A program made the position numbers and the translations under genes. Shown here one piece after another: positions 4,753-14,551 of a stretch of 64,000 nt of DNA. The stretch is taken from positions 12,358-76,357 of the IMG/VR virus record IMGVR_UViG_3300010885_050098, one strand, 5' to 3'. Position 1 is the first letter of the stretch; every line of letters starts with the position of its first letter. The stretch is from a virus. Below the pieces are notes generated by a model. It made no database searches. It saw only the letters and a program-made list of their open reading frames with translations, and had not been told where the DNA came from.

Positions 4753-4768
4753 TCGAACACCTGTTCGA
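4753..4768. promoter_or_regulatory. LexA SOS box (TCGAAC-N4-GTTCGA)
   Basis: TCGAACACCTGTTCGA, exact actinobacterial consensus. Confidence 0.85.
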
Positions 4769-4778
4769 ATAACTATCT

Positions 4779-4861
4779 TGCAAACTCTATTGACCCGACC
4801 CTATGCGCTCGCGTATGTTTCTCCTATCGCACACAAGTGCGAACGAACCGCAAAGGGGCTG
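4779..4861 (+). promoter_or_regulatory. cassette promoter 1: TGCAAACTCTA box, -35 TTGACC, -10 TATGTT, 5' hairpin, AAAGGGGCTG RBS
   Basis: Same architecture recurs at 5965, 6565, 7271, 8014, 8744, 9530, 10877 and 12707. Confidence 0.8.
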
Positions 4862-4864
4862 TAT

Positions 4865-5038
4865 ATGACACGCAAGGACTTCGAGTTAATCGCTCAAGTA
4901 ATCAAAGCACAACGCAAGCCACACAATGACACCGCAACACTCGACGAATTAACTCGCGAGTTTGCCTACGCACTAGCCGACACTAACCCACGCTTCGACA
5001 CTCACCGCTTCATCGAGGCTTGCAAGGTGAGCGCATGA
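4865..5038 (+). CDS. small phage protein (MTRKDFELIA...NPRFD..RF..AC)
   Basis: ATG follows the cassette RBS. Confidence 0.75.
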   Translation: MTRKDFELIAQVIKAQRKPHNDTATLDELTREFAYALADTNPRFDTHRFIEACKVSA

Positions 5039-5220
5039 AACTCAACCGACGAGGCGAGCGCGTTCTCGCGTTCTACATATTCTTCACAATGGCGCTGTTC
5101 GCTGGCGTTCTAGTAATGGGGGCAAACTTCCTACTTACTCATCACCAAGTAATCGACCAATCAACCTGCCACCAAACGGAGGACGGGTTGTCTTGCAAAT
5201 GGAATTGGGAGGCAAAATGA
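5035..5220 (+). CDS. small membrane protein
   Basis: ATGA overlap; one hydrophobic segment. Confidence 0.7.
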   Translation: MKLNRRGERVLAFYIFFTMALFAGVLVMGANFLLTHHQVIDQSTCHQTEDGLSCKWNWEAK

Positions 5221-5561
5221 CACAAGGAACCGAATTCAGAAAGGCGCAAGCCGAAGCACTAGCCAACCGCACCGCGTGTTGGATATGCAAGAACTACTTC
5301 GACCGCAAGGCAGGCGAGATGTCCTATCTCCTCGCTTATGTATTCGTCGGCAAAGTGGGAACTCTTGAACAAGAGATAACCGCTTACAACTTCGACAAGG
5401 TAGAAGACACTCGCAAGCCCGTCTTCGAGAAGCAATCTCACCTTGTCTGTAATCTGTGCGAGGAGAACCATGTTCTCGCCTACGCTGTGGAGAATATCTA
5501 CCCTAACGGCGGATACCACTCAACTCGCAAAGCAACCGACCTTCTATGGGATGAGGCGTAA
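5217..5561 (+). CDS. hypothetical protein with two CxxC motifs
   Basis: ATGA overlap, GGAGG RBS. Confidence 0.7.
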   Translation: MTQGTEFRKAQAEALANRTACWICKNYFDRKAGEMSYLLAYVFVGKVGTLEQEITAYNFDKVEDTRKPVFEKQSHLVCNLCEENHVLAYAVENIYPNGGYHSTRKATDLLWDEA

Positions 5562-5824
5562 TGAAACGCGAGGACTTAGAGAAAATGATTCACTTCATGG
5601 CTGGCGGAGTAGAAACCGCAGACGAGATCAAATTCGTAGATAAACACCTCGAAGGCTTTAACACCTTCCTACTGGATATGACTACTCACCGATTGGTTCA
5701 AGCTGGGATTGAGCTCGAGGAAGCTCAGTCCATGCTGCAAGGCCTGGTTCAAGTGAGCCGCATGCTCGGAGCTTCTCAGTTCCAAGAGTTCGTGCAGTTT
5801 CATCAAATCGTAGACCAAATATAA
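5561..5824 (+). CDS. hypothetical protein
   Basis: TAATG overlap; followed by a terminator. Confidence 0.7.
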   Translation: MKREDLEKMIHFMAGGVETADEIKFVDKHLEGFNTFLLDMTTHRLVQAGIELEEAQSMLQGLVQVSRMLGASQFQEFVQFHQIVDQI

Positions 5825-5828
5825 ATAG

Positions 5829-5866
5829 AAGGGCGTCCGCTGATCCTGGCGGGCGCTCTTTTTTTA
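5829..5866 (+). terminator. intrinsic terminator
   Basis: GGGCGTCCGC...GCGGGCGCTC stem plus T-run. Confidence 0.75.
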
Positions 5867-5885
5867 TGCGCCGCGCCGGGGCGCC

Positions 5886-5946
5886 AAATGTTTGTGTTGG
5901 AACCCGCCCTCCCTGTTCCTAATCCCTAAAGGGAAGGGGGAGAGAC
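5886..5946 (+). repeat. intergenic repeat element copy A (ATGTTTGTGTTG-CCCnCCCnCCC-hairpin-GAGAGA)
   Basis: Homologous copies at 7168, 7935, 8654, 9447 (inverted), 10784 and 12200. Confidence 0.85.
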
Positions 5947-5964
5947 GCCGGGCAGAAATTGGTC

Positions 5965-6049
5965 TGCAAACTCTATTGAATATGTCGGTGGTAGATGATT
6001 GAGTTCTCTCATGGCAAGCAACAAGGCAAGCCATTATAGATTGGGGCTG
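5965..6049 (+). promoter_or_regulatory. cassette promoter 2
   Basis: TGCAAACTCTATTGAAT ... GGGGCTG RBS. Confidence 0.75.
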
Positions 6050-6051
6050 TT

Positions 6052-6522
6052 ATGGGTCTTGATATGTATCTCCACGCTAAGAAGTATGTTAGCGGTTGGT
6101 CGCATGAGAAGGATACGAGCGAGTACCAAAGACTACGCGCTCTTTATCCTGAAGTCGAGATTGACGAGGGTTCTCCTTCGATTGAACTCGTCTTTACTGT
6201 TGGGTATTGGCGCAAGGCTAATGCCATTCATAGTTGGTTCGTTCAGAATGTCCAAGAAGGGCAAGATGATTGCAAGCCGTACTATGTTGAACCAACCGAC
6301 TTAATGAAGTTGAAGGAAGCATGCAGTTTGGAACTTCTAGTTCCTGCTGGTGGTGCTGGTGGTGGTGTTCTTGAACCTACTGCTGGTTTCTTTTTTGGTA
6401 ATGCCGAACGCGACGATTGGTATTACGAAAATCTTAATCGCACAATTCAGATTGTGGATAAGTGCCTAGCACTTCCGCAAGACGGCTGGCATTGGTCTTT
6501 CGAATATCAGTCTAGTTGGTAA
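6052..6522 (+). CDS. conserved phage hypothetical protein (MGLDMYL...YWRKANAIH...GFFFG family)
   Basis: Recognisable phage motif pattern; RBS present. Confidence 0.8.
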   Translation: MGLDMYLHAKKYVSGWSHEKDTSEYQRLRALYPEVEIDEGSPSIELVFTVGYWRKANAIHSWFVQNVQEGQDDCKPYYVEPTDLMKLKEACSLELLVPAGGAGGGVLEPTAGFFFGNAERDDWYYENLNRTIQIVDKCLALPQDGWHWSFEYQSSW

Positions 6523-6534
6523 TCCGTCGAAGGG

Positions 6535-6564
6535 AAGCGCCTCAGAAATGGGGCGCTTTTCTTT
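6535..6564 (+). terminator. intrinsic terminator
   Basis: AGCGCCTCA-GAAA-TGGGGCGCT plus T-run. Confidence 0.8.
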
Positions 6565-6646
6565 TGCAAACTCTATTGTATTTATTCAGTAGATGATTTA
6601 AGTTTCTCTTATCAGCGCAAGTCGCGTTGATATTTTCTTAGGGGGT
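6565..6646 (+). promoter_or_regulatory. cassette promoter 3
   Basis: TGCAAACTCTA-TTGTAT-17 nt-TAAGTT; hairpin ATCAGCGC/GCGTTGAT. Confidence 0.75.
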
Positions 6647-6650
6647 TAGC

Positions 6651-6902
6651 ATGGCAAACGATTTTTGGAATAAGTATTACGGCTCTTTCGTTGGAGCAAA
6701 GATTGTGAAGTTCGTTGGCATGAATACTGAGGACGATATGGGAGATGGTTTCCCTGAGTTCGAAGTCAAGTTCGCAGATGGCGAGATTGGGATTATCTCT
6801 ATCTCACAAGACCCTGAAGGTAATGGTGGCGGATTTATATTCGGCTTAGCATTACCACAAGACCACCCACAAGGTGGGGAAGTGAGGACACTCAATGCCT
6901 AG
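6651..6902 (+). CDS. hypothetical protein (QDPEGNGGG motif)
   Basis: Follows promoter and RBS. Confidence 0.75.
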   Translation: MANDFWNKYYGSFVGAKIVKFVGMNTEDDMGDGFPEFEVKFADGEIGIISISQDPEGNGGGFIFGLALPQDHPQGGEVRTLNA

Positions 6903-7083
6903 ATTAGAAATCGGTGACAAGTATGTCACTCAGAAGTCGGGTGTCGAAGGGATTATCCTTGAGATAGTCCCGAACGATACTGGATCCGTTCGCTTGCGGT
7001 TGGTAACACCTGCCCTTGAAACTCGTTGGACAACCTATGTCCCCGAGCGATTGGGACAAGTAAAGGTTTCATCAGCCCCCTGA
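6895..7083 (+). CDS. small beta-rich (SH3-like) protein; paralogue of 24859..25062
   Basis: Shared GDxYxTxxSGVxGxIxEIVPNxTG...RWTT. Confidence 0.75.
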   Translation: MPRLEIGDKYVTQKSGVEGIILEIVPNDTGSVRLRLVTPALETRWTTYVPERLGQVKVSSAP

Positions 7084-7088
7084 TTGAA

Positions 7089-7117
7089 AACTCCTGAGCA
7101 TGAGTTAAAAGTGCTCA
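7089..7117 (+). ncRNA. predicted compact H-type RNA pseudoknot
   Basis: S1 AACTC/GAGTT, S2 TGAGCAT/GTGCTCA, 1-nt L1, AAAA L3. Confidence 0.55.
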
Positions 7118-7121
7118 ACCA

Positions 7122-7168
7122 AAAAGCTCGTGGATCCTGGCACCGCGCCGGGAGCTGCGAGCTTTTTT
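7122..7168 (+). terminator. intrinsic terminator containing GGATCCTGGC
   Basis: AAAAAGCTCG...CGAGCTTTTTT. Confidence 0.7.
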
Positions 7169-7230
7169 GTTTGTGTTGAGACCCACCCTCCCTGTCTCTG
7201 ACTTACTTCGTAAGGGAGTTGTTGGAGAGA
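7168..7230 (+). repeat. intergenic repeat element copy B
   Basis: TGTTTGTGTTG-AGA-CCCACCCTCCC ... CTTAC-TTC-GTAAG ... GAGAGA. Confidence 0.85.
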
Positions 7231-7244
7231 TGCCGGGCGCAAGC

Positions 7245-7260
7245 TCGAACAGATGTTCGA
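7245..7260. promoter_or_regulatory. LexA SOS box
   Basis: TCGAACAGATGTTCGA, exact consensus; same offset to the TGCAAAC box as at 4753. Confidence 0.85.
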
Positions 7261-7270
7261 AAAAATAGTT

Positions 7271-7350
7271 TGCAAACTCTATTGAAAGTAGGAGAGCGAG
7301 CGCATAATGTTCTACCTATCAGCGCAAGGTGCGTTGATTGAAAGGGGCTG
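7271..7350 (+). promoter_or_regulatory. cassette promoter 4
   Basis: TGCAAACTCTA-TTGAAA-17 nt-TAATGT; hairpin; AAAGGGGCTG. Confidence 0.8.
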
Positions 7351-7354
7351 TAAA

Positions 7355-7810
7355 GTGCTAACGAATAAACAAGCACTTCAGGCTTATACGGAAATCGTAG
7401 AAGCCTACGCAAGCAACGAACCCTTGCCGACTACTTCGGTGAATATGTTCGTTGAAAGTATCAAAGACTTACAAGTCCGCGATTATCTCCTAGGTCATGC
7501 TCCAACGACCTTCGGTGCTCAGGGTGCGATTGAATTCGTAACCTCTATCCTTCCGCTAGTAGATGAGGGCGCTCGCGCTCCCTTCTACACTGTATTGTCT
7601 GCCTTCTATTATGAGGCTGGCGATAGCGAACTCGCGTTCGTATCATTAGTTCAAGCACAATTGCTTGACCCACAATATGCTCTAGCAAAATTGTTTGAGC
7701 GTGTTTACAAGGCTGGTTGGCCAGCCACCGCACTCGCGCAATTGCGCGTTGAACTTCACCCAAAGGTTGCAGAAACCTTTGAGGTTGAAACCGAGTTGGA
7801 GTTCGCGTAA
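7355..7810 (+). CDS. DUF4192-like helical protein
   Basis: D.QVRD...AP..T..A..Y..G...LA...L..A...DP.Y.LA.L pattern; GTG after RBS. Confidence 0.6.
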   Translation: MLTNKQALQAYTEIVEAYASNEPLPTTSVNMFVESIKDLQVRDYLLGHAPTTFGAQGAIEFVTSILPLVDEGARAPFYTVLSAFYYEAGDSELAFVSLVQAQLLDPQYALAKLFERVYKAGWPATALAQLRVELHPKVAETFEVETELEFA

Positions 7811-7821
7811 CTTCAGCCCCG

Positions 7822-7856
7822 AAGCCCCTCGGCAGAAATGCCGGGGGGCTTTTTTA
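7822..7856 (+). terminator. intrinsic terminator
   Basis: AAGCCCCTCGGCA-GAAA-TGCCGGGGGGCTT plus T-run. Confidence 0.8.
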
Positions 7857-7934
7857 ATTTCCGGATCCTGGCGCCGGCAGCTGAGATCCAGGCAGCTGTT
7901 TTTTTAGGGCGCCAAATAATATTTCCCGATGCCT

Positions 7935-7997
7935 AATGTTTGTGTTGGACAGCCCTCCCACCCTGTCTAACCCTTTCAGGGAATTAGGAGGAGAGAG
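7935..7997 (+). repeat. intergenic repeat element copy C
   Basis: AATGTTTGTGTTGG...CCCTCCCACCC...CCCT-TTC-AGGG...GAGAGA. Confidence 0.85.
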
Positions 7998-8013
7998 TTG
8001 CCCAGGAATAGTT

Positions 8014-8094
8014 CGCAAACTCTATTTACAAGTGGGTGCGCTGCGTGGGAGAGTTCATCTGTTGGAGAAGCCAAGTATCCGACAAGAAGGGCTG
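8014..8094 (+). promoter_or_regulatory. cassette promoter 5
   Basis: CGCAAACTCTATTTACA ... TGTTGGA/TCCGACA hairpin ... AAGGGCTG. Confidence 0.7.
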
Positions 8095-8099
8095 TTGAT

Positions 8100-8516
8100 A
8101 TGGCTAGGGCTATGTCTGTGAAAGTGCCAACCGCAAAAGTAATTGCCGCGTTGGAAGCAAGACTCGTAAAGACTCAAACCGAGTGGGACAATCGGGGCGA
8201 GGCTGAAGCAAAGTTCCAAGATGAACACAAGGCTTGGAGTGAAGAAATGAAGAAGTGGGCTGTTGCTCGCATCTCTAAAGCAGAGAATCTTCGTGCTAAT
8301 TATCGTTCGTGGAGTAATCAAGTCAATATCGACTTTGACCTCTCTACCAAAGATGGGGACTTCCCTATCGAGCCAAATCGCGAACACGAAAGTCGTGCGG
8401 AGTGGCAAGTCAAGGCTGAGGTTGAGGAAATCACCAACGCTCTAAATATCTTGCGTATGACTGACGAGGAATATGTAAATGCCTCGACTATGAAGTCAAT
8501 CTCGCAATATCTATAA
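8100..8516 (+). CDS. hypothetical protein
   Basis: ATG at 8100 follows the cassette RBS. Confidence 0.75.
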   Translation: MARAMSVKVPTAKVIAALEARLVKTQTEWDNRGEAEAKFQDEHKAWSEEMKKWAVARISKAENLRANYRSWSNQVNIDFDLSTKDGDFPIEPNREHESRAEWQVKAEVEEITNALNILRMTDEEYVNASTMKSISQYL

Positions 8517-8653
8517 GTAATCGAAACAGGGGCAGTTTGCGGGAGTTCTAGCCCAATGTCGTAAGTAAGAACCCGCACCTAGCAAGCGGCAGGGCCTGGG
8601 GCAACCCGGGCTCTGTCTGCCGCTGCCCAGGATCCAAGCGGCGCGGATCGCGC

Positions 8654-8709
8654 AAATGTTTGTGTTGGCCCTCCCACCCCGTTTATAGGGAGTATGTATG
8701 TAAGAGAGA
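8654..8709 (+). repeat. intergenic repeat element copy D
   Basis: AAATGTTTGTGTTGG-CCCTCCCACCCC...GAGAGA. Confidence 0.85.
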
Positions 8710-8743
8710 CTCAGCTGCCCGGTGGATCCTGGCAAAACTAGTC

Positions 8744-8810
8744 TGCAAACTCTATTTACACGAGCACGGCCAGCATGAGAGAGTTCGCCTACACCTCACG
8801 AAAGGGGCTG
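8744..8810 (+). promoter_or_regulatory. cassette promoter 6
   Basis: TGCAAACTCTATTTACA ... AAAGGGGCTG. Confidence 0.75.
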
Positions 8811-8817
8811 TTTACAT

Positions 8818-9360
8818 ATGGGTTATTACATTGACCTAACTGATGCCGATTGGGAAATTCCCGAAACCGCAGAAGTGCTAGAGGCGTTGAAAGAAATGCC
8901 TACCAAATATCACGCCATTAAACGTGGCGGTTCATCTAATGGAGAATCTTGGTTCTCATGGATGAGCGACGAAAGTATCCTCAACGCAGAGAGTGCGGAG
9001 AGAATATTCAACGACCTAGGGTTCGAGACTACGTCAACCGACGGTAGTTTTAAACTCGATGGTTACTCCAGCAAAACGGGCCAAGAAGATTTATTCTTGG
9101 CGGTCGTTGCCCCATTCTGCAAAACAGGTTCATACGTGGAATTCCGCGGTGAAGATGGAGCCGAATGGCAATACTCAGTACGTGATGGTGTCATGCAATA
9201 TTCAGAAGTTGCTCGTCACTTTCCCGAACCGCATCCGTGGCGCTACTCCCACTTCCAATTCGATGACGGTAAGACTCAGTCTTTCGCAATCGATATCACA
9301 AAACCTCTTCCAGAAGGGGTCCATAACGGCCACGATAAATACATCAAGGCCACAGTTTAA
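8818..9360 (+). CDS. conserved phage hypothetical protein (MGY...GEDG..W)
   Basis: Follows cassette RBS; ends before a terminator. Confidence 0.75.
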   Translation: MGYYIDLTDADWEIPETAEVLEALKEMPTKYHAIKRGGSSNGESWFSWMSDESILNAESAERIFNDLGFETTSTDGSFKLDGYSSKTGQEDLFLAVVAPFCKTGSYVEFRGEDGAEWQYSVRDGVMQYSEVARHFPEPHPWRYSHFQFDDGKTQSFAIDITKPLPEGVHNGHDKYIKATV

Positions 9361-9378
9361 AAGCTGAAAAAGCTGAAT

Positions 9379-9425
9379 GCTCTCACCGGGATCACCCTAG
9401 CGGATCCTGGTGGGAGCTTTTTTTA
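9379..9425 (+). terminator. intrinsic terminator containing GGATCCTGG
   Basis: GCTCTCACCGGGATC...GATCCTGGTGGGAGC plus T-run. Confidence 0.75.
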
Positions 9426-9446
9426 TTTAATAAATATCCCAAAGAG

Positions 9447-9470
9447 GGGAGGGTGGGCCGACACAAACAT
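9447..9470 (-). repeat. intergenic repeat element copy E (inverted)
   Basis: Reverse complement is ATGTTTGTGTCGGCCCACCCTCCC. Confidence 0.85.
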
Positions 9471-9529
9471 CTGGCTTTGGGTAATAAAGGCAAACGGAGC
9501 CCTCGGAGAGAGAGCGCGAAAAAATTCTT

Positions 9530-9607
9530 TGCAAACTCTATTTACACGGAGAGACTGAGCACGTAATGTTCTCCTTGTAAGCGGAAGTACCGATTACAGA
9601 AGGGCTG
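9530..9607 (+). promoter_or_regulatory. cassette promoter 7
   Basis: TGCAAACTCTA-TTTACA-17 nt-TAATGT; hairpin; AAGGGCTG. Confidence 0.8.
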
Positions 9608-9610
9608 AAA

Positions 9611-9856
9611 ATGCGTTCTCTAAGAGAGATTGCAATTGAAATTGAAAGAGAGTGTGCTGATAAGCAATGGTATTACTATGCCGAAGCCTACGTCACTCCA
9701 ATGAAGTCGCTTGAATCGCTGAGCGAGCGCTACTACGAAGATAGTGCTGAATCTATCGTCATGTATGCACTTGCTAATCTCACCTCATGGCGGGGTGATA
9801 CAGCTCGCCGAATCAAGGCCGAGCTCAACGCAATGCTGAAGGGGGTAAGCGCATGA
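9611..9856 (+). CDS. conserved small phage protein (MRSLREIA...YAEAY...Y.LANL..WRG..A.RIKAEL)
   Basis: Follows RBS. Confidence 0.75.
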   Translation: MRSLREIAIEIERECADKQWYYYAEAYVTPMKSLESLSERYYEDSAESIVMYALANLTSWRGDTARRIKAELNAMLKGVSA

Positions 9857-10227
9857 GCGAATTAACCACGCTCAGCTGCACCGAGCTTATAGCTCGTATC
9901 GAATCACTTGAGAATGGCATAACTAACTATAGTCGCCAGCTCTCACGTATTACCGAAGGCCTAACCGCCGATAGTTGGTACCGCTCTGAGGTGGAAAAAT
10001 CCACCGTGCTATCAGAGCTCTGCGAGATCCTGGGTGTTCAACCTACTCAGACCGTCTCCATCACCGCAACCCTTACGGTTTGCATGTCACACGAAGTGCC
10101 GCTCGATGAGCTGGAAGACTTCGATGCAGACCAATTGGTCTCAGACCAACTTTCTATCGATGTCTACGGTGGAGATACCACCCTCGACGATTGGTCGGTA
10201 GAGAGCGCTGATTGGGAAGAGCAATGA
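9853..10227 (+). CDS. acidic hypothetical protein
   Basis: ATGA overlap; D/E-rich C-terminal half. Confidence 0.75.
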   Translation: MSELTTLSCTELIARIESLENGITNYSRQLSRITEGLTADSWYRSEVEKSTVLSELCEILGVQPTQTVSITATLTVCMSHEVPLDELEDFDADQLVSDQLSIDVYGGDTTLDDWSVESADWEEQ

Positions 10228-10460
10228 ACGTAGCTCCATCCCAAGACCTCATGACTCGCTTCAAGGTTCAGGCGGCCATCACGGCCGCTTGGACTGAGTA
10301 TGGCGAGCTGTACGAAGCTGAAGAGGCCGGTGGCTTCTCCGACGCTATGGAATCGATGGAGAGAAAATATGCAGAAGGTGTAGCTGAAGGGCTCAGCTCT
10401 GCATACTTCATGATTTATAACGAATCGTTCCCACCATCGGAGGATGAAAGTGCCATATAA
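10224..10460 (+). CDS. acidic hypothetical protein
   Basis: ATGA overlap at 10224. Confidence 0.65.
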   Translation: MNVAPSQDLMTRFKVQAAITAAWTEYGELYEAEEAGGFSDAMESMERKYAEGVAEGLSSAYFMIYNESFPPSEDESAI

Positions 10461-10737
10461 CCCAAGAGCTGAAAGAGAAGCGGCGATCCTGGCATACACG
10501 GATGAAGACCGGGATGCGATGGACGATACCAACCCGGTTACTCATGCAGAGACTGGCCCTAACCGATTCCATCTCATGTCTCTATTCTTCTCAGATACTG
10601 ACGGTGTTCAGATTCAAGAGGATATGGAGCTCAATGAGATAACCGTTACCTACTTCAATGACGCATTAGTTAGCGAGGAGATTACGGAAGGCCCGATGTA
10701 TGACTGGGCCATCGAGCAATACAACGGCTGGATTTAA
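10444..10737 (+). CDS. acidic hypothetical protein
   Basis: Overlapping ORF followed by a terminator-like hairpin. Confidence 0.65.
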   Translation: MKVPYNPRAEREAAILAYTDEDRDAMDDTNPVTHAETGPNRFHLMSLFFSDTDGVQIQEDMELNEITVTYFNDALVSEEITEGPMYDWAIEQYNGWI

Positions 10738-10783
10738 ACGAGGCCCCTGCTGCGCTTGCGCGGTGGGGGTTTTGCCATGCCCG

Positions 10784-10840
10784 AAATGTTTGTGTTGAAG
10801 CCCACCCTCCCTCATTATGGGAAATATATATAAAGAGAGA
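10784..10840 (+). repeat. intergenic repeat element copy F
   Basis: AAATGTTTGTGTTG-AAG-CCCACCCTCCC...GAGAGA. Confidence 0.85.
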
Positions 10841-10850
10841 TCCCTGGCCG

Positions 10851-10866
10851 TGTGACGTAGCTCACA
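10851..10866. promoter_or_regulatory. CRP/GlxR box (TGTGA-N6-TCACA)
   Basis: TGTGACGTAGCTCACA, exact consensus, in the slot occupied by the SOS box elsewhere. Confidence 0.75.
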
Positions 10867-10944
10867 AGAGAGAGTCTGCAGACTCTATATACATTCGACG
10901 GTTGACGTGTCAATATACGGTTAGCAATAAAAGAAAGGGCTGTC

Positions 10945-11643
10945 ATGAAATTAAAACGTAGTAAGGACCGCAAGGTTGCGAATTCACTCACCGCGGGTGG
11001 AAACGTACGTATTGCGAATTCTTTCGGGCTACCGTCCGGGAGAGAGTACTCATGTCCGGGCGCCACTAGTATATGCGAACGCATATGTTATGCGGGCAAG
11101 CTTGAGAAGCTATATCCAGGCGTTAGAGAGAATCTCACACACAATTGGGATTTACTTAAGAATGCAGACCATGACACTATGGAGAATCTCCTAATGGAGA
11201 TGATCGAGGAATTCAAGGCCGAATGCGATAAGTGGAATGCGCCTAAGTCATTCCGTATCCATTGGGACGGGGATTTCTTTAATGGTGAGTACGCATTCGC
11301 GTGGAAACACGTCATCCTTAATAACCCGGATGTTAAATTTTGGGTATACACACGGGTAGAATCGGCCGCGTACATGCTTAAGGGCATGGAGAATCTTTCT
11401 CTCTATTTCTCCGGAGATAGCGAGAATTTCGAGGCCGCAGCACGGTTGAAAGAGCACGGGATATTAATCGCTAGTCTCGATGAGACTTTCGATCGGGCCC
11501 GTGGAGCGCTTAAACTTATTGGAGAGAAGTCTGCAATATGCCCTGAGCAACGTAAGCAAATACCTCTAAACGGAGCCTGCATTGCATGCGGGATTTGCGT
11601 AGAGGGTAAAGTCAATATATCGTTCTCGATATCTAAGAAATAA
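10945..11643 (+). CDS. Gp88-like (radical-SAM-related) phage protein
   Basis: FGLP...SCPGAT..C..ICYA, FRIH.DGDFF, FWVYTR, C-terminal CP..C..CG.C. Confidence 0.7.
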   Translation: MKLKRSKDRKVANSLTAGGNVRIANSFGLPSGREYSCPGATSICERICYAGKLEKLYPGVRENLTHNWDLLKNADHDTMENLLMEMIEEFKAECDKWNAPKSFRIHWDGDFFNGEYAFAWKHVILNNPDVKFWVYTRVESAAYMLKGMENLSLYFSGDSENFEAAARLKEHGILIASLDETFDRARGALKLIGEKSAICPEQRKQIPLNGACIACGICVEGKVNISFSISKK

Positions 11644-11652
11644 GGAGCAAGA

Positions 11653-11928
11653 ATGGGATCAACACTAGCAAGAGAGCTAGCGGGAGGAGATTTGGGCTTA
11701 GATCTACGGGCCCAGATCACCATCCAGCTACGTAGTAATCATTACCCACCGGTACCGTATGAGATGGTGGATCCATGCATGGATGCCATCGTGGCATATA
11801 ACGATGGAGACACCGATCTATTGATCGCGCTACCATCGCCGATTAAGTGGAAAGGCCAGGATCACGCACCGGCCTATGCAATAATTGAGTCGCATCACCT
11901 TAATGATTGGATCTCATATGAAGAGTAA
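11653..11928 (+). CDS. hypothetical protein (L.SNHYPPVP motif)
   Basis: AAGGAG RBS. Confidence 0.7.
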   Translation: MGSTLARELAGGDLGLDLRAQITIQLRSNHYPPVPYEMVDPCMDAIVAYNDGDTDLLIALPSPIKWKGQDHAPAYAIIESHHLNDWISYEE

Positions 11929-12010
11929 CCTGCAGATTAAGCTTGATGCGGCCGCTAAGGCCCTAGAGCCCATCCTATGGGAGACATTGGATGAGATTGA
12001 TGAAGAATGA
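11918..12010 (+). CDS. tiny acidic peptide (30 aa)
   Basis: Read manually: MKSNLQIKLDAAAKALEPILWETLDEIDEE. Confidence 0.45.
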   Translation: MKSNLQIKLDAAAKALEPILWETLDEIDEE

Positions 12011-12092
12011 ATTTCAAGAGCTGATGGATCGGGTCCTTAAGGAGGGGCTCGATCGCATCGATCAGCTAACTGAAGAAGAGTTGCTCTCCTAA
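12000..12092 (+). CDS. tiny acidic peptide (30 aa)
   Basis: Read manually: MKNEFQELMDRVLKEGLDRIDQLTEEELLS; terminator follows. Confidence 0.45.
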   Translation: MKNEFQELMDRVLKEGLDRIDQLTEEELLS

Positions 12093-12107
12093 CGGATCGA
12101 GCATCAC

Positions 12108-12151
12108 GGCGTCCATCCCCACACAGCCCGGGGTTGGGCGCCTTTTCTTTT
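12108..12151 (+). terminator. intrinsic terminator
   Basis: GGCGTCCA-TCCCC...GGGG-TTGGGCGCC plus T-run. Confidence 0.65.
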
Positions 12152-12199
12152 GGCGAGCGCCCATTTATTGTTTGGTTGTTTGCCTACACCCATATTTCC

Positions 12200-12254
12200 A
12201 AATGTTTGTGTTGACCCACCCTCCCCTTATCCCTTCGGGATAGGGTAAGAGAGA
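12200..12254 (+). repeat. intergenic repeat element copy G
   Basis: AAATGTTTGTGTTG-A-CCCACCCTCCCC...TATCCC-TTC-GGGATA...GAGAGA. Confidence 0.85.
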
Positions 12255-12276
12255 CATCGATGTCAATAGAGTCTGC

Positions 12277-12292
12277 TGTGATGGCCATCACA
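12277..12292. promoter_or_regulatory. CRP/GlxR box
   Basis: TGTGATGGCCATCACA, perfect palindrome. Confidence 0.75.
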
Positions 12293-12300
12293 TGGAGAGA

Positions 12301-12321
12301 GTTGAGTCGGATCGACTCAAG
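12301..12321. promoter_or_regulatory. HAIR-like operator (HspR site)
   Basis: GTTGAGT-N7-ACTCAAG versus consensus CTTGAGT-N7-ACTCAAG (13/14). Confidence 0.65.
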
Positions 12322-12492
12322 TTTTATGAGCCGGAATGAGCAATCTCGAAGAGAGAGAGAGGATCGAAGATCCTGGCACATTCATGCAGAGAGAGAGAGA
12401 AGAGAGAGAGGCATGCAAGCTCCGAAGGAGCTGGCTAGGCTACTGTCTCAGCATGCGAGACGATGAGCAGTCGTGCCACCAGGTCAAATGCT

Positions 12493-12508
12493 TGTTTCAC
12501 GTGAAACT
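12493..12508. promoter_or_regulatory. parS centromere site
   Basis: TGTTTCACGTGAAACT; contains the exact actinobacterial core GTTTCACGTGAAAC. Confidence 0.85.
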
Positions 12509-12679
12509 ATGCGTATATCTTCGATATTGCATATATCTTTGATCGCCATCTCAGGCTGTGGAGAGATTAAGGAAGCAGAGATAAGTAATTGGATATCTAT
12601 CTCTCTTATATCTCTCTCTTGAATATGCTCTCTCTAATTAAAACAAGGAAATGTAAAGGGCCGTATTTCCACAGGGCGC

Positions 12680-12695
12680 TGTGTTGTAAGTCACA
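12680..12695. promoter_or_regulatory. CRP/GlxR-like box (1 mismatch)
   Basis: TGTGT-TGTAAG-TCACA just upstream of TGCAAACTCAC. Confidence 0.55.
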
Positions 12696-12706
12696 TGGTA
12701 AATGTA

Positions 12707-12771
12707 TGCAAACTCACTTGCGCTAGATACTAGCTGAGGAGTAGGTTGGCCTCCTAAGCCAAACAAGGGAG
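12707..12771 (+). promoter_or_regulatory. cassette promoter 9
   Basis: TGCAAACTCAC-TTGCGC-18 nt-TAGGTT; AAGGGAG RBS. Confidence 0.65.
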
Positions 12772-13398: not shown

Positions 13399-13685
13399 CA
13401 ATAAACACATATGAAAAACTAAGACCAATTGCGGATGTATGGGCGTGGCAACATAAAGGAAACTGCGTTGGTAAAAACACTGAATTGTTCTTTTTAGAAA
13501 CAAGTGTCCGAGGGCCAAATAAAACTAGACAAGAAAACGAAGCAAAGGCAATTTGTAAAGGTTGCCCAGTTAAAAATGAATGTTTAAACCACGCTTTAAC
13601 TACTCCTGAATACTACGGTGTATGGGGCGGTTTAAGCGCCGATGAACGTTCTTTTTATAGCGCAAACCGAAGGGAAATTGCATGA
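13395..13685 (+). CDS. whiB: WhiB-family transcription factor
   Basis: W...C...FF...AK.IC..CPV...CL...GVWGG. Confidence 0.93.
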   Translation: MTINTYEKLRPIADVWAWQHKGNCVGKNTELFFLETSVRGPNKTRQENEAKAICKGCPVKNECLNHALTTPEYYGVWGGLSADERSFYSANRREIA

Positions 13686-14551
13686 AAGCAGTATCGTTAT
13701 TTGCAGGTGTAGGCGGGTTTGATCTCGCACTAGAACGAGCTGGTGTAACTGTTGTTGCATCATGTGAAATTGATAAGTACGCACAAAAGGTGTTGGCACA
13801 ACACTTTCCTAATTCAACAATAATCAACGATGTAAAGGATGTAACAGGTGATCAACTTAAACAACTCGGATTCGACGGTAGTGACGGAATTATTGTCGGA
13901 GGATTTCCATGCCAAGACTTGTCCGTTGCGGGAAAGCGAGCAGGACTCGCTGGATCTAGGTCAGGACTCTTCTGGGAAATCTGTCGCATCCTCGACGAAA
14001 CGAAAGCGAAGTGGTTCGTCCTCGAAAACGTCCCCGGTTTGCTGTCATCTAACGACGGACGAGATATGGGAACCGTCATCCAAGCGTTGGTTGAGCGCGG
14101 GTACGGGGTCAGTTACAGGATTTTGGACGCTCAGTACTTCGGAGTCGCCCAAAGACGTCGCAGAGTCTTCATTGTCGGATGTCTTGGAGATGACGGGCGA
14201 GCATCTGCAGAAGTACTCGCTCTCGTTGAAGGCATGCGAGGGCATCTTGAGACGAGCAACACGAAGAGGGAAAAAACTTCCCGAGGCTCTTCATCAAGCA
14301 CTGGAGAATCAGACAAGAAAATAGCACGCATGCGTGGCTTTGGTGACTACGAGTTAGATCATAAAGCAGGCGCATTAAAAGCACGTGATTGGAAAGATGC
14401 TACCGATCTTGTGTATCCCGAAGGAAATGTAGGAACTATAACTACAGCCTTTGGCGCAAAGAACTATTCAAATCACCAAGAACTCATGGAAGGAAGCGTG
14501 GTTGTATATGACGAACTGGTTCGTGAAAAGTCGCAGAGCGCAAAACGTTGA
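13682..14551 (+). CDS. C5 cytosine DNA methyltransferase, N-terminal part (motifs I-VIII)
   Basis: LFAGVGG, GGFPCQDLS, LENVPG, QRRRRVF. Confidence 0.92.
   Translation: MKAVSLFAGVGGFDLALERAGVTVVASCEIDKYAQKVLAQHFPNSTIINDVKDVTGDQLKQLGFDGSDGIIVGGFPCQDLSVAGKRAGLAGSRSGLFWEICRILDETKAKWFVLENVPGLLSSNDGRDMGTVIQALVERGYGVSYRILDAQYFGVAQRRRRVFIVGCLGDDGRASAEVLALVEGMRGHLETSNTKREKTSRGSSSSTGESDKKIARMRGFGDYELDHKAGALKARDWKDATDLVYPEGNVGTITTAFGAKNYSNHQELMEGSVVVYDELVREKSQSAKR
13848..14324 (+). CDS. nested +1-frame ORF, probable methyltransferase subunit (true start uncertain)
   Basis: C-terminal SSLSDVLE...KYSLSLKACEGILRRATRRGKKLP resembles the post-motif-VIII segment of phage C5 MTases. Confidence 0.55.
   Translation: MINLNNSDSTVVTELLSEDFHAKTCPLRESEQDSLDLGQDSSGKSVASSTKRKRSGSSSKTSPVCCHLTTDEIWEPSSKRWLSAGTGSVTGFWTLSTSESPKDVAESSLSDVLEMTGEHLQKYSLSLKACEGILRRATRRGKKLPEALHQALENQTRK

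Follow-up and report, generated by a model that had tools for sequence, protein, structure and literature searches.

Mobile regulatory cassettes called promoter-early stem-loops (PeSLs) are known in T4-type phages (PMC2839356, PMC4122927). Host regulators are also recruited directly by phages and other mobile elements: lytic alphaproteobacterial phages carry inferred CtrA sites, the basis of the 'lytic deferment' idea (PMC9437464), and LexA-controlled elements include GIL01 P1 with gp7 (PMC4551915, PMC6182141), LexA-regulated antirepressors (PMC3121763) and the Vibrio cholerae superintegron, which is co-regulated by LexA and CRP (PMC3948777). In cellular genomes, CRP of Mycobacterium tuberculosis activates whiB1 from position -58.5, a class I location (PMC2844151). 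Here we describe a computational analysis of nine promoter cassettes in 64,000 nucleotides of viral DNA (the window), which forms positions 12,358 to 76,357 of the 76-kb IMG/VR virus record IMGVR_UViG_3300010885_050098 and has a G+C content of about 43%. The variable segment of three of these cassettes ends in a perfect palindrome that would suit a host global regulator, namely LexA in cassettes 1 and 4 and CRP/GlxR in cassette 8 (Table 1).

The two LexA-type boxes are the only perfect matches in the window to the palindrome TCGAAC-N4-GTTCGA, which is the M. tuberculosis LexA consensus (PMC3381160) and resembles the Streptomyces LexA site (PMC9380542). The box of cassette 8 and a second palindrome further downstream match the GlxR consensus TGTGA-N6-TCACA (PMC7999487) without a mismatch. 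A first-pass annotation of this DNA had named the two motifs as the actinobacterial LexA site and the CRP site, and both names agree with these published consensus sequences. By our own arithmetic, chance should supply roughly 0.004 perfect 12-position palindromes of the LexA type and roughly 0.06 perfect 10-position palindromes of the CRP type per 64 kb. LexA-type matches with two or fewer mismatches number nine in the window, against 2.13 in shuffled sequences. Equally loose CRP matches show no enrichment (21, with 31 expected), and therefore only perfect CRP-type boxes are taken as evidence. The box with one mismatch in cassette 9 lies where the annotation had placed it, 11 nt before the promoter box, but is not significant alone. 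It has no counterpart in related phages, in which other genes lie before the orthologous gene, and it is the weakest part of the feature list.

The cassettes occupy 4.7–13 kb of the window, which is its only long plus-strand block and lies between two minus-strand blocks. The parts of a cassette follow a set order. First comes a terminator-like hairpin, followed in most cases by a conserved upstream element and then by a variable stretch. Next are the promoter module and a 5′ hairpin, and an AAGGGGCT ribosome site leads into one to four small genes. In the upstream element, TGTTTGTGTTG and a C-rich CCCACCCTCCC-type box are followed by a hairpin and GAGAGA. In the promoter module, a 10-nt A-rich spacer and TGCAAACTCTA precede a -35 hexamer, which is separated by 17 nt from a TANNNT-type -10 element (TAATGT in cassettes 4 and 7). 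Among the nine cassettes, the -35 hexamers are TTGACC, TTGAAT, TTGTAT, TTGAAA, TTTACA (three times), TATACA and TTGCGC. A 13-mer from this array, TGCAAACTCTATT, has seven copies in the whole 76-kb record, one of them with a single mismatch, all on the plus strand at 4.7–9.6 kb of the window; the reversed control has none.

The first-pass annotation had proposed an interchangeable operator slot, filled by a LexA or a CRP box at the same offset from the promoter box. Its coordinates are exact, in that each perfect box ends 10 nt before TGCA(A/G)AC (TGCAAAC or TGCAGAC, starting at 4779, 7271 and 10877, with a fourth at 12707 in cassette 9). What the offset means is a different matter. When the nine modules are aligned on TGCAAAC, conservation begins about 10 nt 5′ of this motif, and in most cassettes these 10 nt form a semi-conserved, A-rich decamer with a TAGTYT-like end. 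The exact 10-nt offset is thus the length of a conserved spacer that forms the 5′ edge of the module, rather than a rule of operator-to-promoter spacing, and the boxes share it because each abuts this edge. The equal offset of the two LexA cassettes does not amount to two independent observations either, because these cassettes are 86% identical over 44 nt. The second CRP-type palindrome abuts an inverted promoter box instead of occupying the 10-nt offset. As had also been claimed, the other aligned modules carry no palindrome at the box position.

To place the boxes on a common scale, transcription starts were predicted from the alignment at 46 nt after the T of TGCAAAC, with the -10 element at columns 34–39. 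These unmapped starts would put the centres of all three perfect boxes at about -64.5. Contigs from three metatranscriptome runs cover the early genes; they are uninformative on transcript starts, strands and levels, and gaps in RNA cover carry no meaning. The left ends of RNA contigs lie 5–16 nt past the starts predicted for cassettes 4, 6 and 7 (the contig of run X20 begins at 7322, 5 nt past the predicted start of cassette 4), which is a weak hint only.

Related phages place these boxes in a wider setting. A query combining TGTTTGTGTTG with the C-rich box returned 59 loci from about 45 IMG/VR records, from which 126 non-redundant cassettes were assembled, and motifs were counted in the segment from the upstream element to the first gene. 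Perfect CRP-type boxes were observed 52 times (shuffled mean 0.01), or 87 times when up to one mismatch is allowed (0.47), and perfect LexA boxes four times (0.00). The same segments hold 10 DnaA-type boxes TTATCCACA (shuffled mean 0.14), 32 copies of GGCGTGTCG (0.12) and 22 paired GTTAT repeats (0.15). Across whole genomes, perfect CRP-type boxes occur in early regions only (7 of 7 in relative G001, 11 of 11 in G004, 3 of 3 in G006 and 2 of 2 in the window phage), and the reversed pattern gives no match. Their consensus, TGTGA-Y-N-T-A-N-R-TCACA, reads as an ordinary CRP/GlxR-type site. The relatives have the CRP-type box by default in nearly every early cassette. The window phage, as a derived form, no longer has it in most of its own.

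Other routes to relatives were less productive. Searching IMG/VR with the promoter-box 15-mer gave only single chance matches, the sole match to the combined upstream-box and promoter-box pattern (L113) was an unrelated chance match, and in relatives found through their DNA polymerase the exact promoter box of the window occurs at control level only. The upstream element is conserved more deeply than the promoter box, and some relatives have an inverted CCAACACAAAC copy as its partner. Closer relatives do exist, as indicated by DUF4192-like proteins that are 88–97% identical (P0121–P0125); scans of IMG/VR and metagenomes added only more distant ones.

One orthologous gene illustrates how the upstream segment varies. 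Upstream of the DUF4192-like gene, which forms cassette 4 of the window, there is a LexA box only in the window, a LexA box with a CRP-type box in G001, L227 and L182/L225, and a CRP-type box only in L177, L203 and L258/L259. The same position holds GGCGTGTCG in L179, L200 and L221 and paired GTTAT repeats in L204 and L234. In L258/L259, the flank GCAAGC that precedes the LexA box in the window is followed by a CRP-type box instead. In cassette 4, the LexA box and the bases next to it are the same as in G001, and a 10-nt A-rich spacer stands where G001 has an 8-nt linker and a CRP-type box. Similarly, window cassettes 3 and 6 have no box, but the orthologous cassettes of G001, L203 and L227 do have one of the CRP type. 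In L205 and L210, genes homologous to the first gene of cassette 1 also come after CRP-type boxes. Across phages, the same gene has different upstream modules and shared flanks.

From these alignments, the variable segment 5′ of the conserved promoter module holds different operator-like motifs for the same orthologous gene, and to this extent the proposed slot is real at the level of the phage family. The notion that its contents are alternatives does not survive, however. The LexA box lies upstream of a CRP-type box in the same cassette in G001, L227, L182/L225, G004 and L207, at a distance of 7–8 nt in G001, L227 and L182 and of 19 nt in G004, and the LexA box of L207 is flanked on both sides by CRP-type boxes. 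The boxes thus stack as well as swap.

Further motifs occur in this segment. DnaA-box-like 9-mers TTATCCACA stand at the same upstream position in L180, L186, L197, L206, L211 and L223, with up to three in about 60 nt and each directly before TTGACA. Other lineages have GGCGTGTCG directly before the -35 hexamer or paired GTTAT repeats, and a TGACCAGTCA repeat is also present.

Both LexA boxes of the window recur at orthologous promoters in relatives, and other orthologues lack them. The box with the AGAT spacer precedes the DUF4192-like gene as an identical 16-mer in the window, G001 and L227 and with one mismatch in L182/L225, while the orthologous proteins are 72% and 48% identical to that of the window. 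The box with the ACCT spacer belongs to the first early cassette of the window, of G004 and of L207, and an identical copy is present in the L240/L251/L252 group. The low-GC L240/L251 group was considered as an independent lineage, a status ruled out by the early genes it has in common with the family. As expected of a LexA site, the arms are kept while the 4-nt spacers differ. Spacing to the promoter behaves otherwise: the LexA box ends 21 nt before the -35 hexamer in the window and 33–34 or 46 nt before it in relatives, with no clear phasing. LexA spacing is accordingly not conserved, and the CRP-type box takes two fixed spacings.

A single cassette in the related phage L200 (about 7590–7720) contains three LexA-type boxes. 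Two of them overlap by one base 5′ of a TTGACT-N16-TAAGTT promoter and the third lies 3′ of this promoter; no first gene is callable there by a simple rule.

These comparisons bear on whether the boxes of the window phage might be relics that, at -64.5, bind nothing of consequence and owe their offset to abutting the edge of a recently homogenized module. Six of the nine window cassettes do without any box, the two LexA cassettes are 86% identical over 44 nt, LexA spacing varies among relatives, and M. tuberculosis LexA is documented to bind with no effect on regulation (PMC3381160). Even so, none of the three boxes has a mismatch, although the variable DNA around them has diverged; the LexA arms are kept and each spacer type is separately conserved in relatives with 69–87% DNA polymerase identity, and the CRP-type box is retained in all six GP88 cassettes. 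We consider relics quite improbable on this balance.

The CRP-type box has a more regular geometry than the LexA box. In most relatives it abuts the promoter box of the respective lineage, and in most cassettes it ends 33–34 nt before a -10-like element, for a predicted centre of about -53.5. The GGCGTGTCG lineage has a second arrangement, TCACA-N13-GTGTCG-N2-TTGACA, in nine distinct cases. Here the box ends 21 nt from the -35 hexamer and is centred at about -64.5, the same position as in window cassette 8. All six orthologous cassettes of the GP88-family gene carry a CRP-type box, which in relatives lies 11 bp closer and abuts the promoter box. The two spacing classes are 11 bp apart, which is one helical turn, although their absolute positions rest on predicted starts. 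Such one-turn spacing resembles the behaviour of an upstream activator that needs to face RNA polymerase.

The -35 hexamers beside CRP-type boxes are often poor. In G001 they match TTGACA at two or three of six positions (TTCGTG, TTAGCG and others), and the window cassettes with a CRP-type box or near-box have TATACA and TTGCGC. The seven window cassettes that lack a CRP-type box match TTGACA at three to five of six positions. A link between a weak -35 hexamer and the need for an activator is not general, because the GTGTCG lineage combines CRP-type boxes with a perfect TTGACA.

Fixed helical phasing to the -35 hexamer also favours a protein that acts on RNA polymerase while bound to DNA, which argues against the idea that the palindromes are nucleic-acid structures or recombination points, such as hairpins of read-through RNA or crossover sites, instead of operators. 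The region is rich in hairpins and repeated modules, and cassette parts have clearly been reshuffled among relatives. However, the palindromes have stems of only 5–6 bp, Rfam has no family that matches the cassettes, and conservation follows half-sites, with arms fixed, the centre varying and no compensatory change. This explanation is consequently very hard to credit.

Which protein might occupy the boxes depends on the phage and its host. The window phage is an uncultured, apparently strictly lytic, myovirus-like phage of about 96 kb. Its genes include those for a sheath, baseplate, family A DNA polymerase, class II ribonucleotide reductase and SNF2 helicase, and it also encodes RecA, two tRNAs, two WhiB proteins, a GP88-family protein and the DUF4192-like protein. 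WhiB is regarded as an actinophage marker (PMC10202952), and the combination of two WhiB genes with the GP88-family and DUF4192-like genes argues for an actinobacterial host. The closest cultured relatives are Streptomyces phages with a DNA polymerase identity of only about 40%, and the INPHARED collection contains no near-identical phage. Because its sequence is present in freshwater metagenomes of several studies and its G+C content is consistent with low-GC freshwater Actinobacteria, the host is probably a member of this group. Attempts to specify the host gave no further clue: searches of genome contigs with the phage WhiB and with a DUF4192-like alignment produced no match, the RecA homologues all belonged to the phage family, and a search for longer cellular homologues of the DUF4192-like protein had no result. 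Given such a host and such distant cultured relatives, M. smegmatis and C. glutamicum are surrogate hosts only.

Five family genomes, namely the window phage and four relatives, were searched for regulators. Two of them are complete, at about 96 kb with terminal repeats. None of the five encodes a tyrosine or serine recombinase (integrase), an HTH_Crp_2 (PF13545) or cNMP_binding (PF00027) domain, a LexA_DNA_bind or Peptidase_S24 domain, or a ParB homologue, whereas all five encode RecA. The absence of an integrase and repressor that had been noted in the window thus extends to LexA-like and CRP-like proteins across the family genomes, and these domain searches suggest that the host, and not the phage, supplies the cognate CRP-family protein.

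We therefore propose the following model for what is presumably the early-gene region. The CRP-type box would serve as a class-I-type upstream activator site at which host CRP/GlxR helps to recruit RNA polymerase. The window phage would have replaced this box in most cassettes by the A-rich spacer and better -35 hexamers. The LexA box would be an add-on kept 5′ of two particular early operons, making them sensitive to the occupancy of host LexA and hence to DNA damage or RecA activity, including that of the phage RecA. Simple repression is not the obvious mechanism, because a LexA dimer centred at about -64.5 would not occlude the core promoter; on the predicted starts, the window LexA box overlaps neither the -35 hexamer, the -10 element nor the start. 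LexA would probably act instead by interfering with upstream activation through CRP or the C-terminal domain of the polymerase alpha subunit (alpha-CTD). Recombination between repeated parts of the cassettes may account for the gain, loss and stacking of boxes. Taken as a whole, including the directions of regulation, we lean slightly towards this account. The direction of the LexA effect is much less certain than this account as a whole: the most economical option is that LexA hinders alpha-CTD docking or CRP, and because positive regulation by LexA and silent LexA binding are both known in M. tuberculosis (PMC3381160), the LexA box could have an activating or purely architectural role.

Several observations weigh against this model. 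The transcription starts are predicted from alignment, and a generic sigma-70 scan flags only one of the nine promoters (cassette 1). The distance between LexA box and promoter varies among relatives, and a LexA centre near -64.5 lies outside the usual position for LexA repression. The perfect TTGACA beside CRP-type boxes in the GTGTCG lineage also means that a weak -35 hexamer does not always accompany the box. Moreover, the compared phage groups share early genes and make up one extended family, not independent lineages. Finally, nearly all cassettes within one phage share one motif type, and some lineages use motifs that have no known host factor (GGCGTGTCG and paired GTTAT repeats).

A lineage-specific phage regulator would produce such a distribution of motifs as well. 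In such a case, the palindromes would be operators of unrecognized phage DNA-binding proteins, either small early proteins or proteins delivered with the DNA, and their likeness to host sites would be coincidence or mimicry. One motif type at nearly all early cassettes of a lineage, differing between lineages (CRP-type, GGCGTGTCG, paired GTTAT or TTATCCACA), is as expected from the co-evolution of a phage regulator and its sites. In addition, most early proteins have no Pfam family and could hide a new DNA-binding fold. Coincidence would, however, have to account for three motif classes that match the full published consensus of a host regulator at every defined position (LexA 12 of 12, CRP/GlxR 10 of 10 and DnaA 9 of 9), and for host-type HAIR-like and parS-like palindromes in a neighbouring panel of a phage family that encodes no ParB. 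Furthermore, early promoters must fire before any phage protein exists. We consider phage-encoded binders unlikely. Host factors appear to be the better reading, because the motifs match host sites, the cognate proteins are absent from the five genomes and early promoters precede phage protein synthesis; host LexA and CRP/GlxR would then be the proteins that bind the boxes.

A broader and more tentative proposal, which we put forward as possible but would not yet rely on, is that this large and abundant family of lytic freshwater actinophages uses plug-in early promoters. One upstream position would accommodate sites for CRP/GlxR, LexA, DnaA and at least two other factors, stacked or exchanged by recombination, such that each operon or lineage reads a different host signal (carbon status through cyclic AMP, DNA damage or replication) without encoding the regulators.

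Table 1. Boxes, promoter modules and associated genes of the nine cassettes, in window coordinates.
Feature	Position	Strand	Remarks
LexA-type box, cassette 1 (TCGAAC-ACCT-GTTCGA) TCGAACACCTGTTCGA	4753-4768		Perfect match; predicted centre ~-64.5
Promoter module, cassette 1: 10-nt spacer, TGCAAACTCTA 4779-4789, -35 TTGACC 4790-4795, -10 TATGTT 4814-4819	4769-4819	+	
Cassette 1 operon, four small genes (4865-5038, 5035-5220, 5217-5561, 5561-5824)	4865-5824	+	No Pfam family
Promoter module, cassette 2	5965-6004	+	No operator upstream
Promoter module, cassette 3	6565-6604	+	No operator upstream
LexA-type box, cassette 4 (TCGAAC-AGAT-GTTCGA) TCGAACAGATGTTCGA	7245-7260		Perfect match; predicted centre -64.5
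Promoter module, cassette 4: spacer AAAAATAGTT, TGCAAACTCTA 7271-7281, -35 TTGAAA 7282-7287, -10 TAATGT 7305-7310	7261-7310	+	
Cassette 4 gene, stand-alone DUF4192 C-terminal-like protein, 151 aa, GTG start	7355-7810	+	PF13830, E 8e-11
Promoter module, cassette 5: CGCAAACTCTA, -35 TTTACA	8014-8053	+	No operator
Promoter module, cassette 6	8744-8783	+	No operator
Promoter module, cassette 7: -35 TTTACA, -10 TAATGT	9530-9569	+	No operator
CRP/GlxR-type box, cassette 8 (TGTGA-CGTAGC-TCACA) TGTGACGTAGCTCACA	10851-10866		Perfect match; predicted centre -64.5
Promoter module, cassette 8: spacer AGAGAGAGTC, TGCAGACTCTA 10877-10887, weak -35 TATACA, -10 CAATAT 10911-10916	10867-10916	+	
Cassette 8 gene, GP88-family protein	10945-11643	+	PF17338, E 6.6e-48
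Inverted promoter-box copy	12262-12276	-	Non-coding panel; adjoins the next feature
Second perfect CRP-type palindrome	12277-12292		Non-coding panel
CRP-type box, cassette 9	12680-12695		One mismatch
Cassette 9: CRP-type box, 11-nt gap, TGCAAACTCAC, weak -35 TTGCGC, -10-like GTAGGT	12680-12746	+	

Several features of the array lie outside the boxes and promoters. Most cassettes have a 5′ stem-loop between the -10 element and the ribosome site (4820–4850, 6008–6035, 6610–6632, 7317–7338 and 9579–9600). Those of cassettes 3 and 4 are 91% identical over 22 nt, relatives have stem-loops of different sequence at the same place, and a stem-loop at the predicted 5′ end of a transcript may be a stabilizing hairpin. 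The element formed by TGTTTGTGTTG and the CCCACCCTCCC-type box follows 3′ of each terminator (5886–5945, 7165–7235, 7934–8000, 8654–8700, 10784–10840 and 12200–12250); an inverted copy lies at 9435–9472, and the hairpin stem varies among copies. A GGATCCTGGCA-like motif recurs in or near terminators (7128–7143, 8720–8735, 9397–9410, 10484–10494 and 12364–12379), is also found in the slot of cassette 6 and corresponds to repeat families D10–D13 and D16.

The longest open reading frame of the DUF4192-like gene starts at an ATG at 7307, inside the predicted -10 element, and some database calls give a protein of 167 aa; orthologues and the ribosome site favour the GTG at 7355. In a short stretch 3′ of the cassette 5 gene (8519–8572), DNA and RNA runs reach depths of up to about 220, compared with about 4 in the surroundings. 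Contigs that cover these positions have unrelated sequence on both sides, which suggests a short element common to other abundant organisms or phages; neither ARAGORN nor Rfam reports anything there. The non-coding panel at 12200–12700 contains, besides the CRP-type palindrome, a HAIR-like repeat (TTGAGT-N7-ACTCAA, 12302–12320), a parS-like palindrome GTTTCACGTGAAAC at about 12493–12507 and long GA repeats. At the position of this panel, L176, L178, L187 and L227 have three tandem CRP-type boxes followed by a HAIR-like repeat, and the parS-like palindrome is also found in L185 and L207. A gene for a C-5 cytosine methylase lies at 13682–14551.

Low-GC freshwater Actinobacteria are among the most abundant bacteria of lakes, and to our knowledge very little is known of how gene expression is controlled in their phages. 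If host CRP/GlxR and LexA do act at these promoters, infection by a strictly lytic phage would be coupled to the carbon status and DNA damage of its host. The family would also provide a natural example of modular promoter wiring, with one chassis, exchangeable host-factor inputs and dozens of natural variants to compare, and the boxes would offer a sequence-based clue to the host regulators of organisms that are hard to grow.

Among described systems, the lytic phages with CtrA sites are similar in that they are non-temperate, that promoter-proximal sites for a host regulator were inferred by comparative genomics, and that phage expression would be coupled to the state of the host (PMC9437464). 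The CtrA phages, however, use one regulator and often encode a copy of it (PMC9437464), whereas the family described here has several host-type sites (CRP, LexA and, in relatives, DnaA-like) at one modular position and no phage-encoded cognate. The LexA-controlled elements likewise use host LexA boxes, and the superintegron LexA and CRP boxes, to wire promoters to DNA damage and carbon state. Yet GIL01, the antirepressor elements and the superintegron are temperate or integrated, and LexA there overlaps the core promoter as a repressor. The window phage lacks lysogeny genes, and the LexA boxes of its family lie 21–46 nt 5′ of the -35 hexamer, sometimes beside a CRP-type box.

Class I CRP promoters such as that of whiB1 share with the phage cassettes a TGTGA-N6-TCACA box that lies 5′ of the -35 hexamer with a spacing that appears fixed and helically phased, and a weak -35 hexamer is found in many of the phage cassettes that carry the box. 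The predicted centres in the phages are -53.5 and -64.5 rather than -58.5 or -61.5, and the boxes mark nearly every early promoter of a phage rather than a scattered cellular regulon. A limited survey of the literature turned up no phage early-promoter array described as having a modular upstream position for the sites of different host factors, which is weak evidence that none has been reported.

The closest parallel in overall organization is the PeSL. In both systems, a plastic early region contains small genes of unknown function between repeated composite motifs that combine a promoter with a terminator or stem-loop, and these repeats could serve related phages as sites for the exchange of modules. 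In the window, this organization is evident from repeat families D1–D4, the cassette alignments and the terminator-like hairpins. PeSLs belong to an unrelated phage lineage with hosts of a different phylum and other sequence motifs, and they have not been described with a variable slot for host transcription-factor sites. The window cassettes, in contrast, add a long upstream element, come from an actinophage with WhiB genes and Streptomyces-phage relatives, and lack the T4-type early-promoter motif. The cassette array therefore works like a PeSL array without being a member of the PeSL family.

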